32,000 nucleotides of DNA from Acaryochloris marina MBIC11017 (GTDB taxonomy: Bacteria; Cyanobacteriota; Cyanobacteriia; Thermosynechococcales; Thermosynechococcaceae). The notes below the pieces were generated by a model. That model did not search any database. It saw nothing but the letters and a program-made list of their open reading frames with translations, and had not been told where the DNA came from. Location of the stretch: assembly GCF_000018105.1 (NCBI RefSeq), contig NC_009928.1:241122-273121 (forward strand), written 5' to 3'. The position numbers were made by a program, and so were the translations under genes. Shown here in pieces: positions 6,191-31,464 of the stretch (its first letter is position 1; each line of letters starts with the position of its first letter).

Positions 6191-6197
6191 GTAAACG

Positions 6198-7336: not shown

Positions 7337-7360
7337 AACGTACGGCTCATCCTTAGCAGC

Positions 7361-7491: not shown

Positions 7492-7531
7492 AAGGGAAGA
7501 CACTAGCCTTAATGCTTGCCATAATCCAGAC

Positions 7532-8006: not shown

Positions 8007-8036
8007 TTGCGTATTTACCCGTTGCGTATTTACCCG
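8007..8036 (+). promoter_or_regulatory. Perfect 15-bp tandem direct repeat upstream of the response-regulator gene (candidate operator)
   Basis: ttgcgtatttacccg occurs twice back to back (8007-8021, 8022-8036), 54 nt before ATG 8090. Confidence 0.45.
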
Positions 8037-8089
8037 TAAAGATATGATGACCCCATTGAGGTGTTTAATTTACGACCCAAACCCTTCTA

Positions 8090-9805
8090 ATGTCTGACTG
8101 TCAAACGTTACTTGATTTTGCCGATCAGTTGATTGAATCCAATACAGGCGCAGTGCTGAGTCAGATACAACGTTTAGTGCTGATGGAGGCATTAACCCTC
8201 CGGGCAAAAGCCAAGACCTATGACCAGGTGGCATCTGAGACAGGTTACTCCAGTGGCTACATTAAAGCAATAGCCGCTGAACTGTGGAAATTGCTGTCAA
8301 AAGTCAGTGGCAAAAAGGTCACCAAAGGTAATGTCCAAACGATGTTGCAACAGCAGCTAAAGCATGAGCCATCACTACTGCAGGATGGGCGCTTGGTGGT
8401 TGAGACAGGGATGCTCCCAAACCGACAGCCAATTATCCCTAAAGCAACGGACGTGACGGCGGTGGTGACGGCGGCTAAAGCGACTGAAATTAAGGAGACT
8501 AACGGTAACAAGACTGACGTTAATCAAGCCGAAGTTAAGGAGAAGGCGACGGTTATACCATCCGTTATTCTGGTGGTGGATGACCAGCCTAATATCATGA
8601 ACCTACTCACCAGCATTATGGAACAGGATGAGTATGAGGTCTGGCAGGCCAGCAGTGGGGCGGAGGGGTTGCAAATGGCCGCGAAGGTGCTGCCGGATTT
8701 GATTTTGCTGGATGTCAACATGCCTGATATGGATGGTTATACCGTCTGCCAGCAGCTCAAGGCAGACCCACAGACTACCGCCATTCCCATTATTTTTGTC
8801 AGCGCCCTGGATGAAACCTGGGATAAGGTGAAAGGGTTTTCCGTCGGTGGCAGTGACTACATTACCAAACCCTTTAACACCCTAGAGGTGATTGTTCGCA
8901 TTGAGGATCAACTGAAAATTCGCCAGATCCAAGACCAAATGCTGAAGGCGGATCAAGCGCCAACTGATTCTCCTCAATCGAAGCCATCTTCCGCCAAAGC
9001 CGTCATTCTAATGGCGGATGATGAACCCAAGAACTTAGCCCTGCTGACGGATGTATTAGAGCAGGAAGGGTATGAAATCTGGCAGGCGGATAGTGGTGCG
9101 GAGGCGTTAAGGGTGGCCGGCATGGTGCTACCGGATCTGATTCTGCTGGATATCAATATGCCCGATATGCAAGGCTACGATGTGTGTCAACAACTGAAAG
9201 CAAACGCTAAAACCAAACTAATTCCGGTGATTTTTGTCAGCGCCCTGGATGAAACCTGGGATAAGGTGAAGGCATTTTCTGTGGGAGGCAGTGACTACAT
9301 CACCAAACCCTTTAACACCCTAGAGGTGATTGTTCGCATTGAGAATCAACTGGAAATTCGCCAGATCCAAGACCAAATGCTGAAGGCGGATCAAGCGCCA
9401 ACTGATTCTCCTCAACCGACGCCATCTTCCGCCAAAGCCGTCATTCTGATGGTGGATGATGAACCTAAGAATTTAGCCCTGCTGACGGATGTATTAGAGC
9501 ATGATGGGTATGAAATCTGGCAGGCGGATAGTGGTTCGGAGGCGTTAAGGGTGGCCGGCATGGTGCTACCGGATCTGATTCTGCTGGATATCAATATGCC
9601 CGATATGCAAGGCTACGATGTGTGTCAACAACTGAAAGCAAACGCTAAAACCAAACTAATTCCGGTGATTTTTGTCAGCGCCCTGGATGAAACCTGGGAT
9701 AAGGTGAAGGCATTTTCTGTGGGGGGCAGTGATTACATTAATAAGCCGATTCAGATCGTTGAATTAATGGCTCGGATGAAGCATCAACTGCAAATTTGGC
9801 ACTAA
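8090..9805 (+). CDS. Multi-receiver response regulator: N-terminal HTH-like module plus three CheY-like REC domains
   Basis: The N-terminal 85 aa or so (...IQRLVLMEALTLRAKAKTYDQVASETGYSSGYIKAIAAELWKLLSKVSGKKVTKGN...) resembles the HTH-like module seen at N-termini of many cyanobacterial signalling proteins. Three receivers follow, each with a DD pair, an acceptor Asp in LLD(V/I)NMPDM, and a (T/N)KP lysine. Confidence 0.9.
   Translation: MSDCQTLLDFADQLIESNTGAVLSQIQRLVLMEALTLRAKAKTYDQVASETGYSSGYIKAIAAELWKLLSKVSGKKVTKGNVQTMLQQQLKHEPSLLQDGRLVVETGMLPNRQPIIPKATDVTAVVTAAKATEIKETNGNKTDVNQAEVKEKATVIPSVILVVDDQPNIMNLLTSIMEQDEYEVWQASSGAEGLQMAAKVLPDLILLDVNMPDMDGYTVCQQLKADPQTTAIPIIFVSALDETWDKVKGFSVGGSDYITKPFNTLEVIVRIEDQLKIRQIQDQMLKADQAPTDSPQSKPSSAKAVILMADDEPKNLALLTDVLEQEGYEIWQADSGAEALRVAGMVLPDLILLDINMPDMQGYDVCQQLKANAKTKLIPVIFVSALDETWDKVKAFSVGGSDYITKPFNTLEVIVRIENQLEIRQIQDQMLKADQAPTDSPQPTPSSAKAVILMVDDEPKNLALLTDVLEHDGYEIWQADSGSEALRVAGMVLPDLILLDINMPDMQGYDVCQQLKANAKTKLIPVIFVSALDETWDKVKAFSVGGSDYINKPIQIVELMARMKHQLQIWH
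8793..9740 (+). repeat. 438-bp in-frame tandem duplication (about 2.2 units) inside the response-regulator gene
   Basis: tttttgtcagcgccctggatgaaacctgggataaggtgaa recurs at 8793, 9231 and 9669. By eye, units 2 and 3 are identical for about 185 nt (about 9101-9290 vs 9539-9728), with only scattered differences elsewhere. Confidence 0.9.
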
Positions 9806-9895
9806 AAATTTAACGAGATGACGATGCAACGCCACTCAGCCAGGGATCTCAAACTGACAAAACCGATGGCAAATTTAGCATGAAGGAATCATCAG

Positions 9896-12640
9896 ATGAA
9901 CCCCAAAACACCTTCGCTTTCCCTCCGTTGGGTTCTCATCATTCCATTCGTTGTGCAAATTTTTGCTGCCGTGGGAGTGGTCGGTTATTTTTCATACCGT
10001 AGCGGGCAGCGAGCGGTAGAAGATGTGGTGAATCAGCTCCAAAATGAGATTAGCGATCGCATTACCGAACGCCTCGATACATATTTACGCACGCCGAGCC
10101 TTGTGGCTGACAATTTGTCACTAGCCATCCAAACCCGAGAACTGGATATCAACCAAATCAATCGAGATTGGGAGCTTTATCTTTGGCGACATATTAATCT
10201 ATACGACAACGTTAAAGGCGTTTATGTTGCCACCGAAGATTTGCAATACAGGCACATCATTTCTCAGGAAGAAGGGCTGGTGATGGAGCTCTTCTCTTTA
10301 GAGGATCAGTTCCTCCGTTATTATTTAGTCGATCCCAAGGGCAGTGTTACCGATGAACTCATAGAAGTTCTGGAAAAAGAGTTCAAGCCACGCTCTCGTC
10401 CTTGGTACACGGCCCCCAAGCAGGCTGGTAAAGCGACATGGACCCCGATTTTTATTTGGGTTCAAGGGGATACGATGAGCGTCGATTTTGCAACCCCGGT
10501 TTATGGTCCATCGCAACAATTCGAAGGGGTGGTGGGAACCAGCTTTTCATTGTCGAATATCAGTGATTATCTTGCCACACTTAAAATTGCTGAATCTGGC
10601 GAGGCATTTATCCTCGAACGCTCTGGCGCAGTCGTCGCCACCTCCACTGGAGAAAAACCCCATGGGATCGATCTCGACAGTCAAACAGTTGCGCGATTGA
10701 ATGCTATAGATAGTCAAAATACTCTGATGCGCCAAACGACTCAATATCTCTTCGATCGCTTTGGCAGCTTAGAGAATATCAACTCCCTCACTCAAGATCG
10801 CTATAAAATTGAGGGTCGCCAATATTTCTTAAAGGTTGAATCTTATCGTGACAATTTAGGTTTAGATTGGCTGATTGCCATTGTCATCCCTGAATCGGAT
10901 TTTATGGCCCAAATCTACGCCAACATTCGCACGACCCTGGCCCTTTGCCTGGGGGCATTGGGCATTGCTACCTTTTTGGGCATCCTTACCTCTCGTTGGA
11001 TTTTGCAACCGATTTTACGCTTACAAATCGCCTCCAACAGCTTGGCGGCTGGGCAACTGGACCAAGCCATTGAGGTTAAAGGCATCCATGAACTCTCTAG
11101 TCTCGGCAGCGCTTTCAACAGCATGGCGAGACAATTGCAAGAATCGTTTCAAGCCTTAGAAGACAACAATGCAAAGCTGGATCAACGGGTGCAACAACGA
11201 ACCGCCGAGCTGAAAGTCGCCAAAGAAAAAGCCGAAGTGGCGAACCAGGCCAAAAGTCTGTTTATTGCCAATATGAGCCACGAACTGCGCACCCCCCTCA
11301 ATGGCATTTTGGGCTATGCCCAGGTGTTGGAGCGATCGCCCACTATCTCTGATAAAGCGCAGCAGCAAGTCCACATCATTCATAAGTGTGGCACCCATTT
11401 GTTGGGCATGATTAACGACATTTTGGACCTGTCTAAGATTGAAGCGGGCAAACTCGACCTGATGCCCAAACCCGTCCATCTGACCTCCTGCTTACAGGGG
11501 GTTGCCGAAGCCTGCCGGGTGCGGGCCGCCCAAAAGGGACTGGAGTTTGTCTATGCCGTTGACCCAGGGTTGCCCGAGGGGGTGGAACTGGATGAACAAC
11601 GGCTGCGACAGGTGCTGTTCAACCTGTTGAGCAATGCCATTAAATTCACCCAGCAGGGCACCGTGACCTTGCAGGTGTCGGTCGCTGAGGTAACCCGATC
11701 CGATTATCGGCGACTGCGTTTTGGGGTAACCGATACCGGCGTGGGCATTGCCCCAGCCCATCTGGATCAGCTATTTAATGCCTTTGTGCAAGTGGGCGAT
11801 CGCCAAAAGCAAGCTGAAGGCACCGGGCTCGGCCTCGCTATCAGCCGCCGACTTGTGCAATTGATGGGCTCACAGATTGAAGTGCAAAGCGCAGTGGGAC
11901 AAGGCAGCCAATTTAGCTTTGAACTCGAAGTGCCATTGGCTACCGAATGGGAGCTATCTCCCAGTACCCTACAGAACCACGCTATTATTGGCTATGCCGG
12001 TGAACGGCGGCGTGTGTTGGTGGTGGATGACCGCTGGGACAACCGCAGTGTTTTGGTCAGTCTCTTGCAGCCCATTGGCTTTGAAATCGTGGAAGCGGAG
12101 GAGGGGCAGCAGGCCCTGGCTGTGCTCCAACAGCAGCCCTTTCATCTCATGATTACTGATTTGGCTATGCCCGTGATGGATGGGTTTGAGTTGCTCCGGC
12201 AGGTACAACAGTTGCCCATACGCCCCCCCAAAATGCTTGTGTCTTCGGCCTATGTTTCTAAGCAGGAACAGGAACTGGCGATGGCCGCAGGGGCAGATGC
12301 GCTGCTGCCAAAGCCCGTTGATGCGGCCAAGCTGTTTGAGCTTTTGGCGCGTGAGCTAGGGTTGGAGTGGCAATATGTGGGGAATGAGGCCCCTCAGGAC
12401 ATTACCTCTGCACCCGCAGCGGCAATTACCCTGCCGTCCCGAGAGCGGTTGCGATCAATGTATGACGCGGCGGATGCGGGGGACTTTCGCATGGTTCGCC
12501 GACAGTTGGAGCAGCTGATGGCGACGAACCCAGAGTATGAGGGGTTTGTAAGGCCGCTGCTAGCGTTGGCGAAGAAGCTGAAGACGGATGAGATTAAGGG
12601 GATGCTGGCGCAGTATGTCGATGATGAAGCGTCGGGATAA
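9896..12640 (+). CDS. Hybrid sensor histidine kinase (TM, Cache-like, TM, HAMP, HisKA, HATPase_c, REC, helical tail)
   Basis: TM helix [20 protein letters not shown]. Extracytoplasmic region with SRPWYTAPK (Cache-like). Second TM plus HAMP. H-box [20 protein letters not shown]-box [11 protein letters not shown]1 DTGVGI, G2 GTGLGLAI. Receiver VLVVDD...[11 protein letters not shown]...LPKP. Three HIP1 sites lie inside the gene. Confidence 0.95.
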
Positions 12641-12667
12641 GGGATCTGCGGTACAAGTTGACAAAAT

Positions 12668-12717
12668 CTTACTTTTTCTAACTCCGTCACTGAAGTAATG
12701 AAGTTAGAAAAAGTAAG
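12668..12717 (+). terminator. Perfect 15-bp stem-loop downstream of the kinase gene (possible terminator, no U-tract)
   Basis: cttactttttctaac (12668-12682) pairs with gttagaaaaagtaag (12703-12717). The loop is 20 nt. It lies 28 nt after the stop at 12640. Confidence 0.4.
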
Positions 12718-13074
12718 GTGGGTCGGCTGTGTAACGCCTCGTAAACAAAACCCGTTAATTTCGCTTCAACTAATTAGGTTTTAAATCCATTTTTGATGGG
12801 GAAACCAACTGGATAATGCTGATTTGTGATTTGAATCACGTCTAGAAAAAGACTAGATCACAAGAAGAAAGAAAGTCTTTCGAACCTGGCTTTTTGCATC
12901 ACTAAATCTAACTTTTTCGGTATTTCGCCTTATTGAAAAGTTGACGATAGTGGGTTCAACAGCACGGGACATTAAATCCCACAGCCAGTCTCAACAAATC
13001 TGAGGTGCCGATCTAAATACTGGTTGGTATCAAGAGCAAGAAGCTCAACTTACCCACAAAAAGGAGCAAGGACA

Positions 13075-15906
13075 ATGACTATTGAAGCAAGATATGACAT
13101 CGACCCCGACCTAACTGGAATCTCTCGTATTACTGATGATTCTCCCATTCAGTTCCTATCGAATCGCCTCGATCATTGGAAGGGATTGAAACATTATCGA
13201 TTTGACTTAACCGTTCGCAATTCTTACCAGTTTGCTACTGCACCTAATCATGATGGCAAGCACGGTGGTTCGCTAGAACTCACCAGATTTAATAAGAAGT
13301 GGACTAATCAGAAACAGGACTACTATCAGTATAAAACCCTCTTTGGTACTGATTCAAGAGACGTTATTTACGAAACCCAAGACTATAGATACTTGGGGGG
13401 TTGGGGTGAATACCTTGACGAAACATTGAAACCTGTTTCACAAAACATATACGGTGGTGGCGGTAATGACACCATTATTGCTCATGATTTGCAAGGTTAT
13501 AGCGACAGCGTAAAGAGTTATTTAAACGGTGATCCAAGTAGTATTAATCAATTTCATGGTGAAGCTGGAAATGACATTTTGAAAGGTAACGCGTTCCAGA
13601 ACCTCCTGTATGGAGGGACTGGCAACGATACGCTAGATGGTGGCGGAGGCGATGATTTTCTCTCAGGCAATGAAGATAATGACAAACTATGGGGTGGAGA
13701 TGGAGAAGATCAACTCTTTGGCGGAATAGGAAATGACATTCTGGTTGGTGGAGACGGATACGATGAAATAGACGCTGGTGATGGTGATGACACGATTTTT
13801 CTGGATGTTCCAATTGAGGGTAACAATAAGGGTGACTATGTAATTGGTGGAACAGGTGCTGACACCTTCGTCATTGGTGGCACGACAATGACTACTACTA
13901 CTACCACCACCACCACACCCTATGACTGGAAGGGGACAGGTTTAGGTGCCACTACTGATGTAATGGGTGCTGTCATTGATGGTACTGGTTTAGGTGTCGC
14001 CTCGAAAGTTACCAAAGGTGTTGTTGGTGCTGTTATTGATATTTTTAAGGGTGCTGAAAGCAAAAATGTTGAAACAACCACAGTGGAATCAGTACCTGGC
14101 AACATAGCAACAGGAAATTATATCCAAATCACTGATTTTAATCCTAGAGAAGATGTCATTGTTATTCCTATAAGTGCTGAACTGTCTAATGTTGGGCGTA
14201 CTATCACAGATGATAATTTGCGTACGCTAGAACTCTACTACAAAGACAGCGGGCGAGTTTTTGCCGAAATCAAGCTTGAAGAACTCTATAAACTTTACAA
14301 CAACGACGAAGTTGCTCTGAATATCAACAACCGTGATGAGTTGGAGAGCGTTTGGGAATCTGTTCTAGACAGCTCACTCTATCTTGGTACATATGATGCC
14401 AATGACTCTAGTCCCACCATTAAGTTAGGTACAACAACAGAAAACTTTAAAAATGCTGATGGCAGTCTTACCGAAATCAAAACCACTGTATCTGAGCTAG
14501 ATGCTAACTACATGGTTATTGGCGCTTATGCAGGAGCTAATATTCTTACTTCAGGTAAGGACGATGATCTCTGGGGAACTGACTATAATGACGTTCTCGT
14601 AGCCTATCCCACAGCTTCCAATAAAGAACCTCAGCATAATGAGATCAATAAGCTATACGGTTTCAACGGGGATGACATTTTAGCTGGTGGTGCTGGTGCC
14701 GATTATTACTTTGGTGGTGACGGTACTGATATTGTGTCTTATGCTGACGATAGATTTGACGATAACGATTCTAATGGCATCACAGTTAATCTTGCAGACT
14801 CGCTTGAAGGAAATAAAGAAGACTATGCCTACTTAGACCCTGAAAGTGAAAAAGCAATTTTTTCTTGGGCTTGGGATGTTTATGCAGATCCTCTGGACCC
14901 AGATCAGGCTGACAAGCTATTCAGTATTGAGGGCATTATTGGTTCCAAATGGGATGACAGTATTAAAGGAGATAAGTGGAACAACATATTCAATGGTGGT
15001 GACGGAAATGACACCCTAGAGGGTGGCGCCGGAAATGATACTCTCATTGGTGGTGAGGGTGAGGATACCCTAGAGGGTGGCGGCGGAAATGATACCCTCA
15101 TTGGTGGTGCTGGTAGCGATACTCTAATCGGCGATGTTGTTGCTGGTAACGATACTCTAATCGTCGATGCTGGTGCAGATACTTTTGTGTTAGATACCAC
15201 TGAAGGTGGCATCGACACGATCAGAGGCTTTAGCCTTGCAGAAAATGATGTGCTCTTGATTGACAATAAGAGCCTAGGTACTAGTCATGCGAAAGCCCGG
15301 AACTTGAATGGAATGCTCTCCGCTACGGGCCTTAAGCTTCAGTTAGGCAACGTAGGAATTGCGACTATCGAAAACGTCGATAGCTCTAACGTTCATCGAG
15401 TGCTGGGTCGTGTCGAATTCACCACTAGCTCACACATCAACACACCACTTGGCCTCGGCGATGATTTGCTGGCAACAGGTGACGGCAATGATAGGCTCAC
15501 GGGAGGATCGGGTGACGACCTTCTCAGTGGTGGTGCTGGAAATGACACTCTGCTAGGCGGCACGCACAAAGACCTTTTACTGGGTGGTCGTGGGGATGAT
15601 TTACTCGACGGGGGAAAGGGCATTGACCGTCTCTATGGCGGCAGTGGTGCGGACACCTTCGTCATCAACAACACGGTATCAGGCCTCAACAAGAGATCAG
15701 GCATCGATGTTATCCAAGACTTCAGTGTGGATGAATTCGATCACATTCAGATTGATGCTTCTGTCTTCGGTATCGGGATTAACGATCACCATTTAGTTCA
15801 GCTTGGCAATGACAGTTTCTTACGAGTGAACAACAGAAAAATTGCACAGCTTACCGGTGTGGATGTGAATACTTTCGTCACCGACGAACATGTTAACTTG
15901 GTCTAA
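13075..15906 (+). CDS. Large RTX-type calcium-binding repeat protein (probable T1SS substrate)
   Basis: Three blocks of hemolysin-type nonapeptides GGxGxDxUx, for example GGTGNDTLDGGGGDDFLSGNEDNDKLWGGDGEDQLFGGIGNDILVGGDGYDEIDAGDGDD, GGDGNDTLEGGAGNDTLIGGEGEDTLEGGGGNDTLIGGAGSDTL and GGSGDDLLSGGAGNDTLLGG. No N-terminal signal peptide. AAGGAG lies 8 nt upstream of ATG 13075; the track start at 13024 is a TTG. Confidence 0.9.
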   Translation: MTIEARYDIDPDLTGISRITDDSPIQFLSNRLDHWKGLKHYRFDLTVRNSYQFATAPNHDGKHGGSLELTRFNKKWTNQKQDYYQYKTLFGTDSRDVIYETQDYRYLGGWGEYLDETLKPVSQNIYGGGGNDTIIAHDLQGYSDSVKSYLNGDPSSINQFHGEAGNDILKGNAFQNLLYGGTGNDTLDGGGGDDFLSGNEDNDKLWGGDGEDQLFGGIGNDILVGGDGYDEIDAGDGDDTIFLDVPIEGNNKGDYVIGGTGADTFVIGGTTMTTTTTTTTTPYDWKGTGLGATTDVMGAVIDGTGLGVASKVTKGVVGAVIDIFKGAESKNVETTTVESVPGNIATGNYIQITDFNPREDVIVIPISAELSNVGRTITDDNLRTLELYYKDSGRVFAEIKLEELYKLYNNDEVALNINNRDELESVWESVLDSSLYLGTYDANDSSPTIKLGTTTENFKNADGSLTEIKTTVSELDANYMVIGAYAGANILTSGKDDDLWGTDYNDVLVAYPTASNKEPQHNEINKLYGFNGDDILAGGAGADYYFGGDGTDIVSYADDRFDDNDSNGITVNLADSLEGNKEDYAYLDPESEKAIFSWAWDVYADPLDPDQADKLFSIEGIIGSKWDDSIKGDKWNNIFNGGDGNDTLEGGAGNDTLIGGEGEDTLEGGGGNDTLIGGAGSDTLIGDVVAGNDTLIVDAGADTFVLDTTEGGIDTIRGFSLAENDVLLIDNKSLGTSHAKARNLNGMLSATGLKLQLGNVGIATIENVDSSNVHRVLGRVEFTTSSHINTPLGLGDDLLATGDGNDRLTGGSGDDLLSGGAGNDTLLGGTHKDLLLGGRGDDLLDGGKGIDRLYGGSGADTFVINNTVSGLNKRSGIDVIQDFSVDEFDHIQIDASVFGIGINDHHLVQLGNDSFLRVNNRKIAQLTGVDVNTFVTDEHVNLV

Positions 15907-21205: not shown

Positions 21206-24200
21206 ATGAAGACGATGCGGACCATCTATGGAGAGATGATTGACTATTACGATGAGGATGAATCTCTCGTAGATGCTCCAGAGCGCTATTACAGCGAATC
21301 CGAGGTTATCACTGACATCGACCGCATGAGTACCGCTGTCTGGGTCGGCTCCAACGCGATTGTTCAAAAGTTAGGCACCTACGTTAAACGAGAGGACTTT
21401 AAAGCCCTCAGTCGAGGATTTCTGCCTGAATCCTTAAAGAGTGTCGCGGGTGGTGCAGTCCAACGGATTCGGGGCAAGAAACCCAACGAAGAAGACAAAG
21501 AACGCCTTGCCCATGACCTGGTGCTGTCTGCGCCTAAAAGTGTGTCGATGGCCCTGCACTTAGAGGGGGACAACCGGATCTTTGATGCCCACATGGAGGC
21601 AGTTCTCGAAACCTTTGAGTTGCTTGAACGCGAGTATGCCCAGACCCGAATTCAAGTAAACGGGGTGCGCTCCGTCGTCGATACGGGCAATATGATTGCT
21701 GCATTGATGCCTCATCACACGTCTCGCGATGGAGACATGCAGCTCCACACCCACATGCTGATCATGAATGGCACTGAGGGGCCAGATGGTCGGTGGCGCT
21801 CCCTCTCTCATGAAAAGCTGGCTCAGGCCAAGTGGATCGGCAGCTTCTACCGTCAGAAGTTAGCTGAGAAAGTTCAACGGCTGGGCTATCGCATCTATCA
21901 AACCAAGGATGCATTTGAGCTAGTGGGCTACGACCGTTCTGATGTCGAAGTCTTTTCTAAGCGTCACCGGGCCATCGTCAAAGCGGTTCAGAAAGAGGGG
22001 CTAGAAGTTACTCCTGAGAATAAGAAGCTGAAGGTACTCCCCACTCGCAAAGCTAAGCGGGGTGTGGGCAAAAAGCTCGAAATCATCCAAGACCATTGGA
22101 GAGAAGAAGCCCGCTCTCAAGGGGTGGGTCATCCGGTTTTGGCTGAACCTCTGGCTGTAATGCCTGACCCAGACCGAGCCAGGTATGAGGTTGAAAGTGC
22201 TATTCGCCATTATGCGGAGTGGTCCTCAATCTTTGAGAAGGACGACATCTATGCCTATGTCTTCAAGACCCTCAAACGTCAAGGCATGGCTATGGAACAG
22301 GTGGATGAGGCCATCAAGCAAAGCAAGGAACTGATCCCCGTTGACCGTGGATTCACCACCGTCACTGCCGTTGAAGAAGAAGCCCAGATCCACCAGCGCT
22401 GGATGGAGGGCCAAGGTCAAGCTCAGCCGATGGTCGCTCATCCTTCCCTTTTGGGGATTAGCGTTGAGCTGAATGAAGACCAGGCCAAGGCCATACTCAA
22501 TACCCTCTCCAGCTCTGACCGTTACCAAATCTGGCAGGGCTTTCCAGGGGTGGGCAAATCTCGCACATTGGGGGTACTCAAGACTTTACTCAATGGATCT
22601 GGCTTAAGTATTCGGGGATTCAGCCCCACGATTCCAGCCGCAAAGAAGCTCCAGGATGAGCTTGGAATCACGACCAATACCGTTGAGCATCTAGTTCTAC
22701 ATAAAGTTGAGGACAGCCCCAATCAAGTCTGGCTGATTGATGAAGCGGGCATGATGAGCCGACGACAGATGAAGGTGATTCTGGAGAAAGCTGAACCCAT
22801 TGGGGCACAAGTCATCTTCGTAGGGGATGCAGGTCAAAACTCTGCGATTGAGGCAGGCAATCCCTTCAAGTTCATGCAGGCCAATGGAGCCACCACCCAT
22901 CGGATTGAGGAGATTGTCAGGCAAAAAGTTGATGTCCAAAAGCAGGCCGTTGAACTGATTGCTAGAGGCAGAGGAATTGCAGCACTAGAACTCCTCGATG
23001 CTAATGGATATGTGATTGAGTCGGGCTGTAAAGCGGAAATGGCCCAAGCCGCAGCAGATCAGTTCCTCGCACTCCCCCTCAAAGAACAAGAGGAAACCCT
23101 GATTATCGCTGGCACCAATGAGGAACGACTCGATACGGAGCAAGCCATTCGTTGGGGTGAGAAACAAGCGGGACGGCTAGGGGAATCCAGCAAGATTGTT
23201 CAGCTCAAGTCTCGCAACCTGAGTATCGAACAAAAGCGACGGGCGGATTGGTATCGAAAAGGGGATTACGTTCGGCTACTGCAAACATCGAAGACATCAT
23301 CCATCAAACGGGGACAGCTCTACAAGGTGGAGAAGCGAGAGGGAGATGAGCTGGTGGTATCTTCCTTTGGCGGTCGGCTCTATCGATTCAAACCCGCGAA
23401 ATACAAACTAAAGGAGGTCTACAGTGCCCATAAATTTGATGTGGCCGTTGGAGATAAGTTGCGGTGGACGACAACGATCAAAGAAAACAACTGGATTAAC
23501 GGTCAGCAGCTCACGGTCACCGCCCTCGATGGCTTGAATATGAAGGTCAGGGACCATGAGGGACGTTCCCATGATGTGCCACTGACGCAACCGCTTGCCT
23601 TGGAGTATGACCGGGTGTGGACTTCCTACCGCTCCCAGAGTGGCACGAAGAAACGGACGATTGTCATCACCACGAATGACCGGACCTCAAGCCGAGAGCC
23701 GTTCCTCGTCGATATTTCCCGACAAGAACATGAATTGACTGTCTATACCGAGAGCCTGAACAAACTCAGAAACCGAGTCGCCAAATCCAATGCTCAAAAA
23801 AGTGCTTTAGATCTAATCGAGGGAACCTATGGAAACCAACGAACAACAACAACAGAACGTCAACAATCAACAGCAGATCATCAACAATCAACAGCAGATC
23901 ATCAACGAGCTTCGAGTCCAGTTAGCCCCACTCACGGACGCGATCACCATCTTGACCAATCAAGTCGAAGAGGTCCAAACTCAGAACCAACACATCCTCG
24001 ACGAAAACAGAGAACTCAAGTCCCAGGTCAGGGAGCGGATCAACACCATCCCAATGGAAGTCAAAGCCGTTCTCAACCTATTTATCCAGGAGTTCAAGGA
24101 GGCGATGGCATCCAAGAAACCCTCGGATATGAGCGAGAGCATCAAGGAACTCGCCAAGGCAATGGACAACTTAAGGATGAAAATCGAGGATACCAGCGTG

Positions 24201-26815
24201 TTGCAGTTGACGATGAGCGACAAGGTATTGGAGGCCGCAGAGGAAATTATGCAGATCAAGAACAAGCTCCCCCGACACGCCCCACCCAAGACGGTCGCTC
24301 AACAGAATGGGGGTCAACCTCCTCAGACCTAGCAAACTGGGTGATGCAATGGTCTGAGGAGCAAGAGCTTGCAGCAAGTGGGTTAGGTGAACACCTGCTA
24401 GCCCTCTCTCAAAGCATAAACAGACTGAGTGAAAATCTCGATAATGTTTCTTTTAATGGCCTGGGCGAATTGGCTGAAGTCGTAGTAAGGGAGCTAGAAC
24501 AACAAGCCCTCGCCCAGAACCTTACTCATATTGCCCAATCCATTGACCAGATTGACCAGACCATCGAACAGACGGTTAGACAGCAAAGGATCAGGAGCAT
24601 TGCCGATGCTGTCACAGAATGGCGAACGGGCCAGGAGCTGGCAAATGCCGTCACCGAAATGGTGAATGTCCTGACTCAGGGCACTGAAGGGCTAGACCGG
24701 GCAATCATCCGACTCCAAGCCGGGATTGAAGCCACCCAATCTCTGGATGTCCAATTCCCCGCAATGGCTGAATTGGTCGATGCCGTTCATGATTGGCAAA
24801 CTGAGGTGGAAGTCTCTGCGGTCATGGGCGAAGTGCAGGACTTGGTTGCGTCAATCACGGTGCCCCAATTCCTGGGCATGGATGACCTGGCTCAGGATGT
24901 CCATGCCCTCAACGAAGAACAAGCCTTGGCTGAGAGTGGCTTGATTGAGCAGTTAGCTGAGTTGACCACTCAGATTAACGAGTTGGTTGAACCCCAGCAA
25001 GTTCAGTTTGAGGGCATAACTCAGTTGGCCGAAGTGGTGAGCGAACTCCAGCAGGGGCAATCCCTCGCTCAGGTGCAACCTCAGCTCCAGGCCATCACCC
25101 AGCAGATTGAAGCGTTTAACGCCAAGCAACCCACTTTTTCTTTTGCCAGAATCAAGGAGCTGGCCGATACCGTCAGTGAATGGAGGGCACATGAGTCCAT
25201 TGCTCAGCACATTGGCGCACTCAATGATCTAACCGTTCGCGCTCAACGAAGTCTGAGAATCTTCCCAGCTATGCTGCAATTGGCTAAATCCGTGAAGGCG
25301 ATGCGCTCAGTGGATGCACTCATGAATGGGCCAGTCGCAAATCAGCTCAAGGAAGTCGCCCAACAGTTGACAGACAAGGGAATAAGCGTCACTCCTAAGC
25401 CCAAAACCATTGATGATCAGGTGTTCTGGACACCCGACTATGAGGGAGTGGCGCGGCCAGACTACATTGATGAAAAACACTGGAATGAATGGGTGTCTAG
25501 TTGTGCCCATCCTGATGTGATTGCCGCTCGGCTCCAATCCATCGCCGATGATCAGGTGATTGATCGGTTGCTGGGAGCCAAGATTGAAGACATCGCCACT
25601 CGTAGACGGGATGGGTCTTTCAAGACGGTTCGTACTCAATATCCCATTAAAGCGATTCGGTCTTTGATTAATGAGCGGTCTCATCCTGAAGTGTTGAGCT
25701 ATCAAGAGCTAGCTGAAGGTGGGGGCTGGTGGGCTGATGCTGGAGTGGATCCGCTGTCCTTTGAAGAACTTGGCCCCAATGAGGAACCCACACTGAGTCT
25801 ATATGGAACGTTTAAACCTGATACTCCCCGCATTGACGTAGACAAGACCCGCAGAGCTAGGGCTAAAAACCCCAATGCCCCAACCAAATATCGCAAGTAT
25901 GAGAATCCATTGGGAACCAAGCGCGAATTGTTCGAGCGAGACATGGCATTCCAACCCGTCCCAGACCATATCGCTGAGCGGATCTTTGCCAAGTATGGTG
26001 TCACCCAAACCCAGGAGGAGAAAGCCAAGGGATTCTGGTACACGGTCTACAAGCATCCTGAGATTCCCATCTACCGGACTGAAGGCGATAAAAAAGATGC
26101 GGCATTAGTCTCTCAAGGAAGAGTCGTCATTGGTGGTCAGGGGGTCAACATCGGCTATCGGGCCAAGAACCAGCACGATGAAAAGCTCGAAAGAAGAGTA
26201 CTGCACCCTCAGCTAGACGTGTTTGCGGTTCCAGGCAGAGAGTTCAGGTATGCCCATGACTGGGATTCTGAGCAGTCCACGGTCTGGAACGTTCGCCGTG
26301 AAATGGTCAGAGAGGCTGAACTCATTGAAGAAAGAGACTGCAAGACATGGAGAATTCCTTGGGATTCTGAGAAAGGGAAAGGCGTCGATGACCTGATCGC
26401 TAATCATGGCCCCATCGCCTTTGAGCGGGCCGACAAGAATGCCTATCCGATGGAGCGGGAAATCACGATGCACTATCGGGGCCAGTACACCCAGATTAAG
26501 AAGCGATTAAATCGTCACTTTGGATGCGCGGTCCACGATATTCCCATTTACCTAGAAGCGATGAAGGATGGGGACGAGATGGATGGCATTCGGGTCCTAT
26601 GGGAGTCTTCCACTGCCCGGTCCTTCCAGCATTACCATGACAAGCAGCACTATATCGAGGGCATCATCAAACTCTCGGATGCCTATCGTAGACTCGTCAG
26701 AAAAGACGGTGACCCCAAGGCCATGCAAATCCTCGTCAACAGACTAAAAAAGCCCCGACCCATTATCAAGGTCGAGGCCAGAAGTCGGAATATAAAACGA
26801 GGCTATGGACGTTAG
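21206..26815 (+). CDS. MOBF-type (TrwC/TraI-like) relaxase plus RecD-like helicase, ending in a helical-repeat region and a Toprim-like (DUF3854-type) domain, all as one 1869-codon ORF
   Basis: N-terminal ERYYSE...WVGSNAIVQKLG. His triad HHTSRDGDMQLHTHMLIMN. Walker A GFPGVGKSRTLG. Walker B VWLIDEAGMMS. C-terminal IYRTEGDKKDAALVSQGRVVIGGQGV (Toprim Glu) and GKGVDDLIANHG (DxD). The bridge at 23829-24332 is suspect; see findings. Confidence 0.85.
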   Translation: MKTMRTIYGEMIDYYDEDESLVDAPERYYSESEVITDIDRMSTAVWVGSNAIVQKLGTYVKREDFKALSRGFLPESLKSVAGGAVQRIRGKKPNEEDKERLAHDLVLSAPKSVSMALHLEGDNRIFDAHMEAVLETFELLEREYAQTRIQVNGVRSVVDTGNMIAALMPHHTSRDGDMQLHTHMLIMNGTEGPDGRWRSLSHEKLAQAKWIGSFYRQKLAEKVQRLGYRIYQTKDAFELVGYDRSDVEVFSKRHRAIVKAVQKEGLEVTPENKKLKVLPTRKAKRGVGKKLEIIQDHWREEARSQGVGHPVLAEPLAVMPDPDRARYEVESAIRHYAEWSSIFEKDDIYAYVFKTLKRQGMAMEQVDEAIKQSKELIPVDRGFTTVTAVEEEAQIHQRWMEGQGQAQPMVAHPSLLGISVELNEDQAKAILNTLSSSDRYQIWQGFPGVGKSRTLGVLKTLLNGSGLSIRGFSPTIPAAKKLQDELGITTNTVEHLVLHKVEDSPNQVWLIDEAGMMSRRQMKVILEKAEPIGAQVIFVGDAGQNSAIEAGNPFKFMQANGATTHRIEEIVRQKVDVQKQAVELIARGRGIAALELLDANGYVIESGCKAEMAQAAADQFLALPLKEQEETLIIAGTNEERLDTEQAIRWGEKQAGRLGESSKIVQLKSRNLSIEQKRRADWYRKGDYVRLLQTSKTSSIKRGQLYKVEKREGDELVVSSFGGRLYRFKPAKYKLKEVYSAHKFDVAVGDKLRWTTTIKENNWINGQQLTVTALDGLNMKVRDHEGRSHDVPLTQPLALEYDRVWTSYRSQSGTKKRTIVITTNDRTSSREPFLVDISRQEHELTVYTESLNKLRNRVAKSNAQKSALDLIEGTYGNQRTTTTERQQSTADHQQSTADHQRASSPVSPTHGRDHHLDQSSRRGPNSEPTHPRRKQRTQVPGQGADQHHPNGSQSRSQPIYPGVQGGDGIQETLGYEREHQGTRQGNGQLKDENRGYQRVAVDDERQGIGGRRGNYADQEQAPPTRPTQDGRSTEWGSTSSDLANWVMQWSEEQELAASGLGEHLLALSQSINRLSENLDNVSFNGLGELAEVVVRELEQQALAQNLTHIAQSIDQIDQTIEQTVRQQRIRSIADAVTEWRTGQELANAVTEMVNVLTQGTEGLDRAIIRLQAGIEATQSLDVQFPAMAELVDAVHDWQTEVEVSAVMGEVQDLVASITVPQFLGMDDLAQDVHALNEEQALAESGLIEQLAELTTQINELVEPQQVQFEGITQLAEVVSELQQGQSLAQVQPQLQAITQQIEAFNAKQPTFSFARIKELADTVSEWRAHESIAQHIGALNDLTVRAQRSLRIFPAMLQLAKSVKAMRSVDALMNGPVANQLKEVAQQLTDKGISVTPKPKTIDDQVFWTPDYEGVARPDYIDEKHWNEWVSSCAHPDVIAARLQSIADDQVIDRLLGAKIEDIATRRRDGSFKTVRTQYPIKAIRSLINERSHPEVLSYQELAEGGGWWADAGVDPLSFEELGPNEEPTLSLYGTFKPDTPRIDVDKTRRARAKNPNAPTKYRKYENPLGTKRELFERDMAFQPVPDHIAERIFAKYGVTQTQEEKAKGFWYTVYKHPEIPIYRTEGDKKDAALVSQGRVVIGGQGVNIGYRAKNQHDEKLERRVLHPQLDVFAVPGREFRYAHDWDSEQSTVWNVRREMVREAELIEERDCKTWRIPWDSEKGKGVDDLIANHGPIAFERADKNAYPMEREITMHYRGQYTQIKKRLNRHFGCAVHDIPIYLEAMKDGDEMDGIRVLWESSTARSFQHYHDKQHYIEGIIKLSDAYRRLVRKDGDPKAMQILVNRLKKPRPIIKVEARSRNIKRGYGR
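23829..24332 (+). CDS. Embedded +1-frame ORF encoding a 167-aa coiled-coil-like protein (possible separate cistron)
   Basis: GAGG (23819-23822) lies 6 nt upstream of the ATG. An in-frame TAA sits at 23814. Codons are C/G-ending. The product is amphipathic (NELRVQLAPLTDAITILTNQVEEVQTQNQHILDENRELKSQV...). The ORF stops 11 nt before the in-frame ATG 24344 of the long ORF. Confidence 0.5.
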   Translation: METNEQQQQNVNNQQQIINNQQQIINELRVQLAPLTDAITILTNQVEEVQTQNQHILDENRELKSQVRERINTIPMEVKAVLNLFIQEFKEAMASKKPSDMSESIKELAKAMDNLRMKIEDTSVLQLTMSDKVLEAAEEIMQIKNKLPRHAPPKTVAQQNGGQPPQT

Positions 26816-27072: not shown

Positions 27073-29331
27073 TTATCGGGACATGGAAACTTCTCGTTTG
27101 GGCTGTTCTTTCTCCTCAACGGGGGGACGAGCATTGTTCTTTTTAATCCTGGCAATGAGCTTGCTTGAATCTAGGCCTTTCTCTCGCCTCCGATTAATCG
27201 TATCTTTCTGTTCTTGAGTGAAGCCCGCTAGCTCATCCTGGCTTTCTGCGGTGGGACTCTCATTCTGAGATTGGGTATTTTTGGACTCTACATTTATTTT
27301 CTCATCCCCAGATTTCTGATTTTGAGAATCTGGTTTGGGTTCCTCAACCTCAGCCTGCTCATCTTGCGCTTTTGGCTTCGGAGCCTCTGTCTCAGCCTTC
27401 TGGCTTTTTGCTTCGCCTTGCTGCTCTTGATTATCCTTTGGCATGTCAGCCTCAGCTTTTAGGTCTTTCCCAGCGAGATTATAGCGATCTGGAAGCGCAA
27501 TACCATTTTGGATTCTGAGAACCGTGCGAGTGCCCAATTTAATCGTCAGCGTCCCTTTGAAATTCTCAGGGTTTTTGAGGGCATCCTGAATCATCTGAGC
27601 CTGCTCTAAATTGACGGAACTGCGATTGTGGTCAATCATTCCATCACCATCAAGCCGAAATATCTCTTGTCGATTCAAAATAACTCGCAGATTGCTAATC
27701 TCAATGCTACGACCCAGCTTTTCAACGATATCCTCATTGATCATGCGGAGTGGGTCAAGGTCTTCAGATTCCGAGGTTTTCGCTTTCGGTGCTTCCGCTT
27801 CAGGTGCTTGAGAGGGTTCAGACCTTTCTGGTTCTGAGGAGTTGCGGACCACAGCCCTAGCCTCCTCCTCACTCATGCCTTCCTCTTGACCTTGCATCAC
27901 GACCAGCTCGTCATAGTATTCCTGCAACTGCGGATCTTCGCTGATGTATTCTTGAATGTCAGCATAGGTCAGCTCTTCGTCCAGGGCTTTAGACAACAGC
28001 TCCGCATATTGGTCTTGGCTTGTGGGGGCATTCTGTACCTCTGCCCCCTGCTCAAAGGCATCATAGTTGGCCTCAGTGGTGACGAGTTTCTGAACGTCCT
28101 CAATGTCCATCCCATTAACAGCAGCTTGAGCCACCACCTTCTGATCCAGCTCACTCAATAACGTTGGTTTCTCACTGAGGCGAGACTGAATATCCTCCCA
28201 GGTCAGATCTGGATTCTTCTCAAATTCACCCAGTAGCTGGGAATATTGCTGTTGGGCGTCCGTTGATAGTTCGACCGAGGGATTCACGACAGAAGCATTC
28301 ACTTCCAATACTGTTTGAGCTTCAGGCTCCTGGTTCAGCTCCTGATTAACTTCTGGGGTGGGGTTCTCTAGTTTGTATTGCGCCTCCACTGACTTTGCTG
28401 TCTCAGCTAGATAAACAGAGGTATCTTGAAGCTTCGCGTCAGCCATCTGAGATACATTCGGTCCCTGTGAGATAATCGCGGTTGCTTCATCCGGGCCTTT
28501 CCCTGCTTTGAGCGCTTGGTAGAAGACTTGCTTGTCATAGTCAGCTCCTAAGTCGGGCTGATTTTGGAGAGTCTCCTGAATACGCTCATAGGTGAGATTG
28601 GGGTCATTCTGTTGCTCAGATAGGATCTTTACATATTCATCTCGTCGCTCCATATCGCGCTCTGTGGGGATGGAGGCTTGGTTCTGTGCTTCAGCCATTG
28701 TTGCTTGTCTCCTTTGTACGGTTTCCATTGCACTACGAACGTTCTGCTGCACTTGCTCTGGCAGCTTGCTCAATGTTTCCTCAAACCAATCCTTGGCCCG
28801 ATTGATGTAGTGATTCGTCATCCTCCACATATGGACCACGGGACGAGCTACCACGGTAGGAATGCCCTGTCTGGCATAGCTAATGGCAAGTTTGCCTGTA
28901 TCAATCATGCTTTTCCCGATCACCGTCGGAGCGGCAAACCCGCTCAAGGGCCGTGCCCAAGCATCCGTCTTTGCGAGGAGATCTGGGATTCTGACTTTCG
29001 CCCAATCGTCAAACGCCCTTTGACGGAACCAATGGGTTAAACCCGGTTGGATCTGGCTGGACATCTCGGCAAACTGATTCGTGAGCCGTGTTTCGGTAAA
29101 GTCATGGATACTGGAGTGCATCCAGTGAGTGGCTTGACCCACGGCACCCGCGACGAAGGGGCCAACGATGGGGGTATGGGTCGCTGCCACGGCTACTCCT
29201 GGCACTGCTGCCATCTGAATCCCTTTCTTAGCCACACGCATTAAGGGAGCCGCTTGGAAAAAGAGTTGTTCTTCCTCCCTGAGTTCTTGATATTTTTTGC
29301 TGATGAAATTCTGAAATTCAAGTTTTTCCAC
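27073..29331 (-). CDS. Large acidic repeat protein of unknown function (752 aa)
   Basis: GTG start with GGAGAA upstream. The N-terminus has a hydrophobic segment AAVPGVAVAATHTPIVGPFVAGAVG. Three modules of about 57 aa are present (...DP.LT(Y/W)E.IQ..L...P.L....D..V...). The tail is K/E/Q-rich. Confidence 0.8.
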   Translation of the reverse strand: MEKLEFQNFISKKYQELREEEQLFFQAAPLMRVAKKGIQMAAVPGVAVAATHTPIVGPFVAGAVGQATHWMHSSIHDFTETRLTNQFAEMSSQIQPGLTHWFRQRAFDDWAKVRIPDLLAKTDAWARPLSGFAAPTVIGKSMIDTGKLAISYARQGIPTVVARPVVHMWRMTNHYINRAKDWFEETLSKLPEQVQQNVRSAMETVQRRQATMAEAQNQASIPTERDMERRDEYVKILSEQQNDPNLTYERIQETLQNQPDLGADYDKQVFYQALKAGKGPDEATAIISQGPNVSQMADAKLQDTSVYLAETAKSVEAQYKLENPTPEVNQELNQEPEAQTVLEVNASVVNPSVELSTDAQQQYSQLLGEFEKNPDLTWEDIQSRLSEKPTLLSELDQKVVAQAAVNGMDIEDVQKLVTTEANYDAFEQGAEVQNAPTSQDQYAELLSKALDEELTYADIQEYISEDPQLQEYYDELVVMQGQEEGMSEEEARAVVRNSSEPERSEPSQAPEAEAPKAKTSESEDLDPLRMINEDIVEKLGRSIEISNLRVILNRQEIFRLDGDGMIDHNRSSVNLEQAQMIQDALKNPENFKGTLTIKLGTRTVLRIQNGIALPDRYNLAGKDLKAEADMPKDNQEQQGEAKSQKAETEAPKPKAQDEQAEVEEPKPDSQNQKSGDEKINVESKNTQSQNESPTAESQDELAGFTQEQKDTINRRREKGLDSSKLIARIKKNNARPPVEEKEQPKREVSMSR

Positions 29332-29385: not shown

Positions 29386-29740
29386 ACCGTCCAAACCCTC
29401 GATTTTGGCCTCGGTTCCGATTCTGGGTGAGCTTGTGGCCGTGGGTTTCCACCGCGACTTTGAGCTGGGCACTCTTCACATACCGCTCCGCCATCTTGGT
29501 TGGGTCTTGCACTTTCTCGGCATAGTCGCTCATCCGTAGCTTGGTCTTAATCACATCCGTGGGGGTGTTGTTCCGTATCTCCTGCTTCGCCAGTTCCATT
29601 GCCTGTTCAGCGGTCTCGATCTTGACCGCCACTCGCGGCTTGCGGAGGGCGACGGCATTGATGATGACGCTGTTGGTCGCATTCACGGCCTGCTGGCCGA
29701 TTTGCAACGCTTCTCTAAATTGCTGTTCTTCGCTACTCAT
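29384..29740 (-). CDS. Hypothetical protein (118 aa), translationally coupled to the coupling-protein gene
   Basis: ATGA start/stop overlap with the T4CP gene at 29737-29740. The C-terminus is basic (NRNRGQNRGFGR). Confidence 0.7.
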   Translation of the reverse strand: MSSEEQQFREALQIGQQAVNATNSVIINAVALRKPRVAVKIETAEQAMELAKQEIRNNTPTDVIKTKLRMSDYAEKVQDPTKMAERYVKSAQLKVAVETHGHKLTQNRNRGQNRGFGR

Positions 29741-31464
29741 GCGGCTTGTTCCTCCTGTTGCTTCAATTTGTGGGATTCAACTTCTTGGGTAGAGGGCAGC
29801 AAAGCATCCGCAGACACCATGCGGTCGGACATGATTTGTTCTGGAGAATCTAACACCCGCTCTTGGGCTATCCTCTCCATCTGCCTATGGACATGGCTGT
29901 TGTACATCCGCTCACATTCGGTGAACCGCTGCATGTCCGTGCCATTCCGCTTCTTCAAGTTGAAGCGCATCCGAATGGGCCGATCATCCATGCCGGGGTT
30001 GGTGCAGATAAATTCCCCTTTCTTCAATCGCTTGATATCTGAAGCGGTAATCAACCGCTTCTTCTTCTCCTGTTCATTGCGGGAGCGGCTGTTGCCCATC
30101 TTCCCGTAGCTGCGAGATTTGGAATGGTAGTGCTTGGTGTATTCCCCCAAGTCCGCACTCAGGTCTTCTCGGACTTTGTAGCTCCCACTCTTGAATATGA
30201 ATTGGGTGGAGGTGTTATCAAAGATCGACTCTGAGGTCTCAGACTGATATTTAATCTTGGGTTGGCTATAGCTCTGCATGGACACAAAGGAATAGAACCC
30301 ATAGCTCCGATCCAAGGACACCACTTCTTCAAAGCTCGGCAGCATCAATCGGGCGAATTCATCTAGGAACACACCAAAGGGCCGATCCCGTTCTGTATCC
30401 TCATTCAGGTTGCGCTGAATCAGTAGGTGAATAGCAACTGCGACGAGGGGGGCCGTGGCTTTCTTGGCTTGTCCATCCAACTCAAAGAAGATGATTTGCT
30501 TACCCGGTAGGTCCAAAGGAATGGTGGATTGGGTGGGTTCGCGCCCATCGATGGACAGACAGGGGATGGTCTGCCGATTGACCATTGGTAAGAGATAGTT
30601 GATGCCACTCGCTAATATGCCACCAGCAGTATCTTGGGTGCCCGTCACGCTCATCAGGCCCACGAGCTGTTGCCTCACCCACATGCCCAAATCGCTATCT
30701 ACTTTGAATGCCCCTTCTTGGTCCGCCAACTGAATCCGCTCGGCGATGCCCGGCAGGCCCATCAAGGCCCAGACCATCGGCAAGTCCGCATAGTCTGCCC
30801 GCTTTGCCATCATCAGCAATGCTTGTAGAAGGTACTCGGCGTGATTGTCGAAGAAAGGATGCTTGTTCGACATATTGACAATCACGTTATCGGACAAGGT
30901 TGAGGCGATGGACCGGGCAATCAGGGAGTCATCCGCATCCCGCATAAATCCCAGGTAGTCAAAGCCATGACTATAGGGCTTGCCCGGAGCAAAGCAGTAG
31001 CACTCATAAGGAATTTTTTGCTTGCGGGCATAGGGGATGAATATCTTCTTGAGGGTGCCTTTGACATCAAAGACAATCAGAGTGTGCTCTTGAAGAATGG
31101 CATCTGCTAAAGCTAGCTCAATTAGTTTGGTCTTGCCCTTACCAGAGCCGCCTACGATGGTGACGAGGGGTTGGAGGTCGGGGAGGATCAGGGGGTCATC
31201 GCTACCCAAGCGCAGGGCAATCTCATCCCGTTTTCGGTCTCTGATCTGCTTGAGTCCCAGCATCTTAGCTCGATGCTGTTCCCGTCTCGTGGCCCACCGG
31301 GCATCATCGGGTTCACGTCTCGTCTCATCCTCAAACCACCACAGGGCAATCAGGATGAGAGCCAATAAGCCCGTCAACCAGGGGAGAGGGCCACTGAATA
31401 GGGGAGACAGGTCAACTCCTTCAGATTGGGGCTGGGGAGGCTGTTCGGTTTTGTGCTGCATCAT
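29737..31464 (-). CDS. Type IV secretion coupling protein (VirD4/TraG/TraD family)
   Basis: N-terminal TM helix LPWLTGLLALILIALWWF. Walker A IVGGSGKGKTKL. Walker B-like GVFLDEFARL. 575 aa. Confidence 0.9.
   Translation of the reverse strand: MMQHKTEQPPQPQSEGVDLSPLFSGPLPWLTGLLALILIALWWFEDETRREPDDARWATRREQHRAKMLGLKQIRDRKRDEIALRLGSDDPLILPDLQPLVTIVGGSGKGKTKLIELALADAILQEHTLIVFDVKGTLKKIFIPYARKQKIPYECYCFAPGKPYSHGFDYLGFMRDADDSLIARSIASTLSDNVIVNMSNKHPFFDNHAEYLLQALLMMAKRADYADLPMVWALMGLPGIAERIQLADQEGAFKVDSDLGMWVRQQLVGLMSVTGTQDTAGGILASGINYLLPMVNRQTIPCLSIDGREPTQSTIPLDLPGKQIIFFELDGQAKKATAPLVAVAIHLLIQRNLNEDTERDRPFGVFLDEFARLMLPSFEEVVSLDRSYGFYSFVSMQSYSQPKIKYQSETSESIFDNTSTQFIFKSGSYKVREDLSADLGEYTKHYHSKSRSYGKMGNSRSRNEQEKKKRLITASDIKRLKKGEFICTNPGMDDRPIRMRFNLKKRNGTDMQRFTECERMYNSHVHRQMERIAQERVLDSPEQIMSDRMVSADALLPSTQEVESHKLKQQEEQAA

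Follow-up and report, generated by a model that had tools for sequence, protein, structure and literature searches.

Sequence comparison points to a +1 gene nested in the mobF relaxase gene of Acaryochloris and Nostoc plasmids

We analysed a 32,000-nucleotide (nt) stretch of DNA from Acaryochloris marina MBIC11017 (contig NC_009928.1, positions 241,122 to 273,121 of the forward strand; hereafter the window). In it, one long open reading frame (ORF), identified from the ORF list, Pfam and NCBIfam as mobF (21206..26815, plus strand, 1869 amino acids (aa)), encodes a MobF-family relaxase-helicase that continues into helical repeats and a Toprim-related DUF3854 domain. Inside mobF, on the same strand and in the +1 frame, lies an embedded ORF of 167 codons, which we named emb (23829..24332). 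Our analysis indicates that this is very probably true dual coding, in which both frames are functional coding frames. Judged by 40 related loci, emb/mobF is a deeply conserved and unannotated same-strand overlapping gene pair in bacterial plasmids. Reports of long same-strand gene overlaps in bacteria generally meet with doubt, because the evidence for them tends to consist of one ORF. Here, selection has left its own measurable mark on each of the two frames, across about 40 loci that belong to two cyanobacterial orders.

The original prediction, made from the letters of the window, had described this ORF, and all its local details proved correct. The emb frame is closed upstream by a TAA at 23814..23816, 12 nt before the emb ATG. 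Between the two lies a Shine-Dalgarno (SD)-like GAGGG (23819..23823, 5-6 nt before the ATG), which encodes Glu-Gly in the mobF frame. The gene ends with a TAG at 24330-24332; after 11 nt follows a mobF-frame ATG at 24344..24346, and the third sense frame ends at a TAG at 23923. In the mobF frame, the same DNA (23828..24343) reads as a 172-codon hydrophilic linker, which is compositionally disordered, unconserved in sequence and free of stops. No sigma-70-like promoter and no terminator were predicted near the emb start. The emb N-terminus contains a 21-nt tandem repeat (23842..23906, 3.1 copies, 91% matches) that preserves both frames, with a Q/N/I-rich translation in emb and QQSTADH repeats in mobF; the 14 additional codons of the window emb relative to its homologues are the product of this repeat.

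The codons of emb are arranged such that the long frame stays open. Fifteen emb codons end in T and 57 of 167 (34%) start with AA, AG or GA. A third-position T stands before none of these 57 codons and before 15 of the 109 others, with a naive probability of 0.0019, so that the hand counts of the original prediction (15 T-ending codons, about a third of the codons with such starts, and this chance) were exact. Third-position T amounts to 9% in emb versus 23% in upstream mobF. With a codon-usage model trained on the other genes of the window, the log-likelihood favours the emb frame at ~23900-24200 and the long frame everywhere else in mobF. When the synonymous codons of emb are shuffled among themselves, the long frame stays open in 0.035% of trials. 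When they are redrawn from the codon usage of the window, ~13.8 stops are expected in the long frame, which remained open in 0 of 20000 trials.

The layout recurs in 40 related loci (designated by L numbers) from Acaryochloris and Nostoc plasmids and metagenome contigs. The offset is always +1, and in each locus emb lies inside an annotated or open mobF frame. The overlap spans 110-167 codons and is conserved across two cyanobacterial orders. Both frames are open in 38 of 39 complete overlaps, while the third frame contains 6-22 stops. Four complete Acaryochloris plasmids are 75-83% identical to the window at the DNA level and carry one mobF each, annotated with 1863-1949 aa. In all four, emb is open and +1 to mobF, with a protein identity of 71-88%. 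The close Acaryochloris plasmids share the emb boundaries, which read TAA, ttGAGGaaacctATG, TAG, 11 nt, ATG. In total, five close Acaryochloris-type loci have the layout. It is also present in pREC2 of A. marina MBIC10699, where Emb identity is just ~27-32%, in one Acaryochloris metagenome-assembled genome (MAG) and in eight metagenome contigs, which were found via a JGI protein and phmmer search of 1.84 billion representatives.

In Nostoc megaplasmids, a hidden Markov model (HMM) of Emb matches the +1 ORF within mobF genes. By tblastn, emb was found in 16 Nostoc plasmids, beneath an annotation as mobF, DUF3854 or AAA-ATPase, or beneath none. In seven Nostoc plasmid loci that were checked, emb is +1 and the long frame has no stop; five of the seven show 15-19 stops in the third frame. 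In plasmid pNPUN01 of Nostoc punctiforme PCC 73102 (mobF NPUN_RS38015), emb occupies 1498..1902 of L020, or about 41260..41664 of NC_010631. A further 18 Nostoc-like metagenome loci, retrieved with the Nostoc-clade Emb alignment A5 as query, have the layout. Their overlaps are free of long-frame stops in 17 cases; in L038, the overlap is cut off by a rearrangement. Other queries returned little. A profile search of genome contigs gave no match with the single Emb protein and one MAG only with Emb alignment A1, a metagenome search with Emb alignment A4 gave no match, and a homologous-protein search yielded two matches with Emb and three with the C-terminal half of MobF.

The recurrence of the layout bears on the possibility that the overlap is a sequencing or assembly artefact, in which a coiled-coil segment of MobF has lost its frame through two compensating indels. 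The original prediction had listed such indel errors as an option. Draft-quality relatives do hop between frames, as seen in the database protein P0002, the fragmented L010 and the low-coverage L008. However, the same +1 layout and boundaries are shared by complete plasmids from five strains and by dozens of assemblies made independently, metagenomes included. All length differences between homologues in the overlap are multiples of 3, and among the examined loci emb is nowhere in frame with its flanks. We therefore give an artefact next to no credence. Neither did any examined locus contain emb as a free-standing gene, which answers the question, raised in the original prediction, whether the 167-aa protein exists separately. 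Gene callers list emb separately on short contigs only, and there the long frame is open right through.

P0002, a 91-aa ‘hypothetical protein’ of Acaryochloris sp. CCMEE 5410, is the only named database protein that matches Emb. It is chimeric, running from the emb frame into a mobF-frame peptide (…PHGRDHHPDQS…), back into emb and through a further shift at its end. Because its translation switches frames repeatedly, this record reflects either indels or a decayed mobF.

Selection acts differently on the two frames. Between the window and L001, differences at emb codon positions 1, 2 and 3 are 0.085, 0.039 and 0.216; read in the mobF frame, this pattern is opposite to that of coding sequence. 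In close homologues, the helicase and C-terminal flanks show the normal substitution pattern in the mobF frame. Changes that are synonymous in emb and nonsynonymous in mobF occur at 1.94x expectation, and those that are nonsynonymous in emb and synonymous in mobF at 0.60x. Emb-synonymous changes that create a mobF-frame stop occur at only 0.13x expectation. For distant loci, phmmer scores Emb at 15-50 bits and the mobF-frame peptides from the same DNA at ~0 bits. Similarity between Emb proteins persists at 20-30% identity, where the linker peptide shows none. By these measures, the amino-acid sequence of Emb is under purifying selection. The proposal that the embedded frame behaves as a real coding frame is supported by codon usage, by the phase of the substitutions and by the deep conservation of Emb.

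The mobF frame over the overlap has no conserved sequence, yet the comparisons indicate that it is held free of stops by selection. If emb is recoded with local codon usage, 6-14.5 mobF-frame stops are expected per locus, and none were observed in 22 loci. The probability that the long frame is open, given Emb, is at most 8e-4 in each of the 22. The original prediction had likened the long frame to an out-of-frame read. This holds in so far as its sequence is not conserved, but the frame is more than that, because its openness is itself under strong selection. Coding-type substitutions in emb together with selection for a stop-free long frame favour dual coding, which was the second of the three options originally put forward.

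What do the two frames encode? An AlphaFold2 (AF2) model of Emb, computed from an 11-sequence alignment, predicts an all-alpha, coiled-coil-like protein with helices at 2-94, 98-122 and 125-146 and a disordered tail (mean pLDDT 77). The Emb sequence, which includes the segment SQVRERINTIPMEVK, has a variable N-terminal coiled-coil part, and the conserved core reads ...P..V...L..FI.QF.E......K.S.M.E.I..L.... The linker encoded by the mobF frame contains 7.7% ILMFWV and 19.6% P+G in the window and falls below the Uversky boundary. Across loci, the values range over 7-20% ILMFWV and 7-25% P+G, and the peptide lies below the charge-hydropathy boundary in 19 of 19 loci. By its composition, the linker is disordered. 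We also considered whether emb could be a frame-shifted repeat unit of MobF; the weak blastp match behind this idea (E ~0.03, in a tiny database) was not confirmed by the Emb HMM.

Several points weigh against dual coding or against the role that we propose for Emb below. In L028, the mobF frame contains one nonsense codon inside the overlap, at ~3160, and emb is intact. This codon is Arg in the near-identical neighbour L038, and L028 may represent a recent pseudogene, an error of sequencing, or a lineage in which emb outlives mobF. Emb has no detectable homologue of known function in Pfam, NCBIfam, PHROGs, PDB sequence or Foldseek searches. With Emb as query, Pfam, NCBIfam and PHROGs returned sub-threshold coiled-coil noise, a PDB profile search returned GCN4- and keratin-type noise, and Foldseek gave 0 hits against the PDB. 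When 17 Emb members were compared with Pfam, no family was matched consistently, and the scattered coiled-coil matches lay below gathering scores. The AF2 prediction for the linker is a low-confidence single-sequence run over MobF aa 801-1200 (pLDDT 49.6, low throughout), in which aa 901-1037 are without secondary structure. The case for both products being made is drawn from sequence comparison, and the accessory role of Emb is suggested, weakly, by analogy and gene position. In addition, a 171-codon open run in the +1 frame of a gene with 79 +1 stops is by itself marginally unusual (~0.05, an estimate), and if the linker peptide is recoded, chance alone keeps the +1 frame open in 5-53% of cases (P = 0.05-0.53). 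The openness of emb alone is thus uninformative, because the composition of the linker often leaves the +1 frame open, and the case for emb rests on conservation at the protein level.

That the +1 frame is often open by chance, given the linker peptide, would also fit a scenario in which the ORF is untranslated and its conservation reflects a constraint on RNA structure or a DNA site, or is a by-product of the linker. We consider this improbable. A constraint of this kind is at odds with the three-base periodicity of the substitutions in the emb phase and with the opposite departures of the two classes of change from expectation. It is equally at odds with the protein-level similarity that Emb retains where the linker has none, with the conservation of start codon, SD motif and stop, and with a fold that is confidently predicted to be helical.

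The start signals of emb are consistent with independent initiation. In most loci, GGAG, AGGAG, AAGGA or GAGG is found 5-10 nt upstream of the emb ATG. The mobF-frame residues at this SD-like site vary (IEG, IEE, IGE, LGE, KDY, IGQ, KEQ and others). In 12 of 12 loci examined, a stop in the emb frame lies 12-33 nt upstream of the ATG. With an SD-like motif and an ATG in most loci, emb has the translation start signals of its own that are looked for in an overlapping gene.

The downstream ATG is a different matter. It lies 11 nt past the emb stop in the five close loci only. No nearby mobF-frame ATG follows the emb stop in L005, L006, L007, L008, L009 and L011, and in L012 the nearest one is 77 nt away. 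The ATG at 24344 is hence not a conserved cistron start, and the C-terminal part of MobF depends on read-through, because it has no conserved start of its own. This is pertinent to a further scenario, in which there are three separate cistrons, chance or history accounts for the open long frame, and the functional products do not include the fused protein. Some of our observations would suit it: codon usage in the overlap fits emb and not mobF, the close set has the ATG 11 nt after the emb stop, emb and the downstream gene are called separately on short contigs, and emb and the repeats behave as a movable block. However, a stop codon ending the helicase, for which the original prediction had proposed to look in homologous loci, is found in none of the relatives, so ribosomes arriving from upstream must read through. 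Each of 22 loci is stop-free against 6-14 expected stops, the stop-creating changes are depleted, the downstream ATG is absent in distant loci, and MobF-DUF3854 fusions without emb and repeats exist. Three cistrons as the present organisation, the first of the original options, are therefore very unlikely; as an evolutionary origin, a welding of three cistrons is conceivable.

Alternatively, Emb might not be a separate product at all. In this scenario, ribosomes translating mobF would shift by +1 into the emb frame and back again, or end at the emb stop. The conserved protein sequence does sit in the emb frame, and one degraded contig encodes a helicase-emb fusion (P0009/L010). Such a shift would have to contend with the emb-frame stop that precedes the conserved SD motif and ATG in the loci examined, and selection for a stop-free mobF frame would be needless if ribosomes left that frame. 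+1 frameshifting of the prfB type requires a stop in the 0 frame. There is no such stop at the junction. Reading either junction by eye, without a systematic scan, we saw no slippery motif common to divergent loci; the SD-ATG is all that they share. We regard frameshifting as extremely unlikely and prefer dual coding with internal initiation at emb.

The long ORF is a MOBF relaxase by its domains, with a TrwC-type HUH relaxase domain followed by an SF1B helicase. It scores 243.6 bits against the NCBIfam model NF041492 MobF (cutoff 100), and its homologues in the four Acaryochloris plasmids are annotated as mobF. The TrwC relaxase domain occupies aa 12-303 (21239..22114, PF08751, 215.5 bits) and the AAA_30 helicase core aa 421-605 (22466..23020, PF13604, 171.9 bits), both on the plus strand, as are the regions that follow; TraI_hel_assoc_N was also matched in Pfam. 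The C-terminal region of the helicase extends to ~23827, with 22706-23827 matching MobF/TrwC helicase parts in 2053 plasmids. Internal repeat matches define a helical repeat region at aa 1047-1500 (24344..25705), and the Toprim-related DUF3854 domain lies at aa 1610-1736 (26033..26413, PF12965, 143.5 bits). The ~450 aa of helical repeats and the overlap segment thus make up the stretch that separates the helicase from DUF3854. A PDB sequence search with the C-terminal DUF3854 domain gave no match. DUF3854 is Toprim-related and is used in Rep proteins of cyanobacterial plasmids (PMC10079941).

The position of the overlap within the relaxase differs between lineages. In the Acaryochloris-type order, relaxase and helicase are followed by the emb/linker segment, the repeats and DUF3854. 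In the Nostoc-type order, which emerged when L017, L018 and L020-L024 were compared with the window, DUF3854 directly follows the helicase, and the emb/linker segment and repeats come last. The repeats always stand directly after the emb/linker segment, Nostoc-type genes included. Two shorter Acaryochloris MobF-DUF3854 genes (1317 and 1344 aa) are without emb, without room for the repeats and without a long +1 run. Because the domain orders differ and the short genes lack both, emb, linker and repeats occur and move as one block. We infer that Emb works with the repeat region of MobF. In L018, the gene is annotated as two coding sequences, mobF at 3558..5786 and a DUF3854 protein at 5927..10909, with the split inside the helicase region.

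Under dual coding, we propose that ribosomes starting at the mobF ATG at 21206 would read through the overlap and produce the 1869-aa protein. In full-length MobF, the overlap would form a flexible linker between the relaxase-helicase on one side and the helical repeats with the Toprim-like DUF3854 on the other. On the same mRNA, other ribosomes would be recruited by the internal GAGG at 23819, start at the ATG at 23829 and give rise to the 167-aa helical Emb. Emb could then serve the transfer machinery as an accessory protein or partner, co-expressed with MobF, a role that we put forward tentatively, by analogy with known systems. Since emb, linker and repeats always co-occur and have moved as a block, the helical repeat region, which is encoded immediately 3' of emb, would be its most likely partner. 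A more speculative and, in our estimation, rather doubtful extension is that Emb was born de novo by overprinting on the disordered MobF linker and is now a co-translationally delivered partner of the repeat domain. SD motif, emb/linker and repeats would in that case form a self-contained dual-frame module, which was shuffled so that it precedes DUF3854 in Acaryochloris and follows it in Nostoc.

Genes nested in relaxase genes are known from small mobilisable plasmids. In RSF1010, mobB lies inside mobA/repB in another frame, and MobA/RepB is a relaxase-primase fusion (PMC2200642). According to the title of Parker & Meyer 2007 (cited in PMC3912908), the transport signals of the R1162 relaxase/primase require MobB. 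In both cases the relaxase gene fully contains a small gene of the same strand but another frame. The relaxase is fused to a primase-type domain there and to the Toprim-related DUF3854 here. In contrast to RSF1010/R1162, the relaxase described here is a MOBF enzyme with an SF1B helicase rather than MOBQ, its C-terminus carries DUF3854 and not the RepB' primase, and it has no conserved internal in-frame start like that of RepB'. Emb matches no described family. The likeness to these systems lies in the layout, and the role of Emb would be analogous in logic to that of MobB.

Similarly, mobB and mobD of ColE1-type plasmids lie wholly inside mobA (PMC5935869), just as the accessory mobilisation genes mbeB and mbeD are wholly overlapped by the relaxase ORF mbeA. 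However, these MOB-HEN plasmids are small, their relaxase measures ~500 aa, and their nested proteins are unrelated to Emb, since 0 of 17 Emb members match the MbeB/MbeD families at E<=0.01. The general pattern of overprinted pairs with one disordered partner has been described (bioRxiv 10.1101/229690, PMC6195259). As in viral overprinted genes, one frame here is structured and conserved, the other is disordered and evolves fast, and the bias at third positions follows from the partner frame. Unlike those, the pair belongs to a bacterial plasmid, and what is disordered is a linker between domains of a multidomain enzyme, constrained only to stay open. The plasmid replication proteins CyRepA1 and CyRepA2 of cyanobacteria share the Toprim-related DUF3854 domain (PMC10079941), but they contain a DEXDc helicase and no relaxase, and no nested gene is reported for them. 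A limited literature search found no report of a nested gene in MOBF or cyanobacterial relaxases, and plasmid annotations do not list one.

Indeed, every annotated plasmid record that we examined shows only mobF, a DUF3854 protein, an AAA ATPase or nothing at this place, and a conserved plasmid protein family, Emb, is thus invisible at present. Accessory genes nested in relaxase genes are known from small plasmids of the MOBQ and ColE1 types; this pair would add the giant MOBF relaxases of cyanobacterial megaplasmids to the theme. The pair would also provide a candidate partner protein for a poorly understood region of the relaxase, the helical repeats and the Toprim-like domain. If the speculative dual-frame module outlined above is real, it would be a domain cassette that yields two proteins from one segment, which is not described for conjugation systems. 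The two frames are separable genetically. T23830C removes the emb start (ATG to ACG) and is silent in mobF (TAT to TAC). Conversely, C-to-T changes at emb third positions before AA, AG or GA codons create a stop in mobF and are silent in emb.

Other long alternative-frame runs exist in mobF homologues outside emb. In L007 (JGI metagenome 3300079875), the mobF that contains emb at 176..598 has a second +1 ORF of 131 codons at 899..1294. Its product looks helical, and it overlies another hydrophilic, disordered-looking mobF stretch downstream. It does not qualify as Emb-like (hhalign probability 0.4%) and might be a second nested gene or chance. Further runs start at 7086 in L001 (+1, 126 codons) and at 3676 in L005 (+2, 137 codons).

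The paralogous mobF genes of L001-L004 are mosaics. Between L001 and L003, 1% of aa differ in the helicase part, 14% in emb and 17% in the C-terminal part, and the C-terminal 500 aa of L002 are >55% different from the other close mobF genes. Such differences suggest that plasmid relaxase genes have recombined with one another at the boundaries of their modules.

The surroundings of mobF fit a DNA-transfer module. In the window, a type IV coupling protein is encoded at 29737..31464 on the minus strand (Pfam TraG-D_C, T4SS-DNA_transf and TrwB_AAD_bind). Between it and mobF lies a 752-aa ORF (27073..29331, minus strand), for which a weak FF-domain match was the only one. In three of the four close plasmid homologues, genes for AbiEii/AbiGii-family nucleotidyltransferase toxins are located directly 3' of mobF on the opposite strand (L001 9077..10090, L003 8136..8420, L004 7771..8784), and L012 has an NTP_transf_2/HepT-like pair in their place. 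Upstream of the transfer module, the window carries cargo at 8090..15906. The genes there encode a triple-receiver-domain protein (8090..9805), a hybrid histidine kinase of the Cache/HAMP kind (9896..12640) and an RTX-repeat protein of 960 aa (13024..15906).

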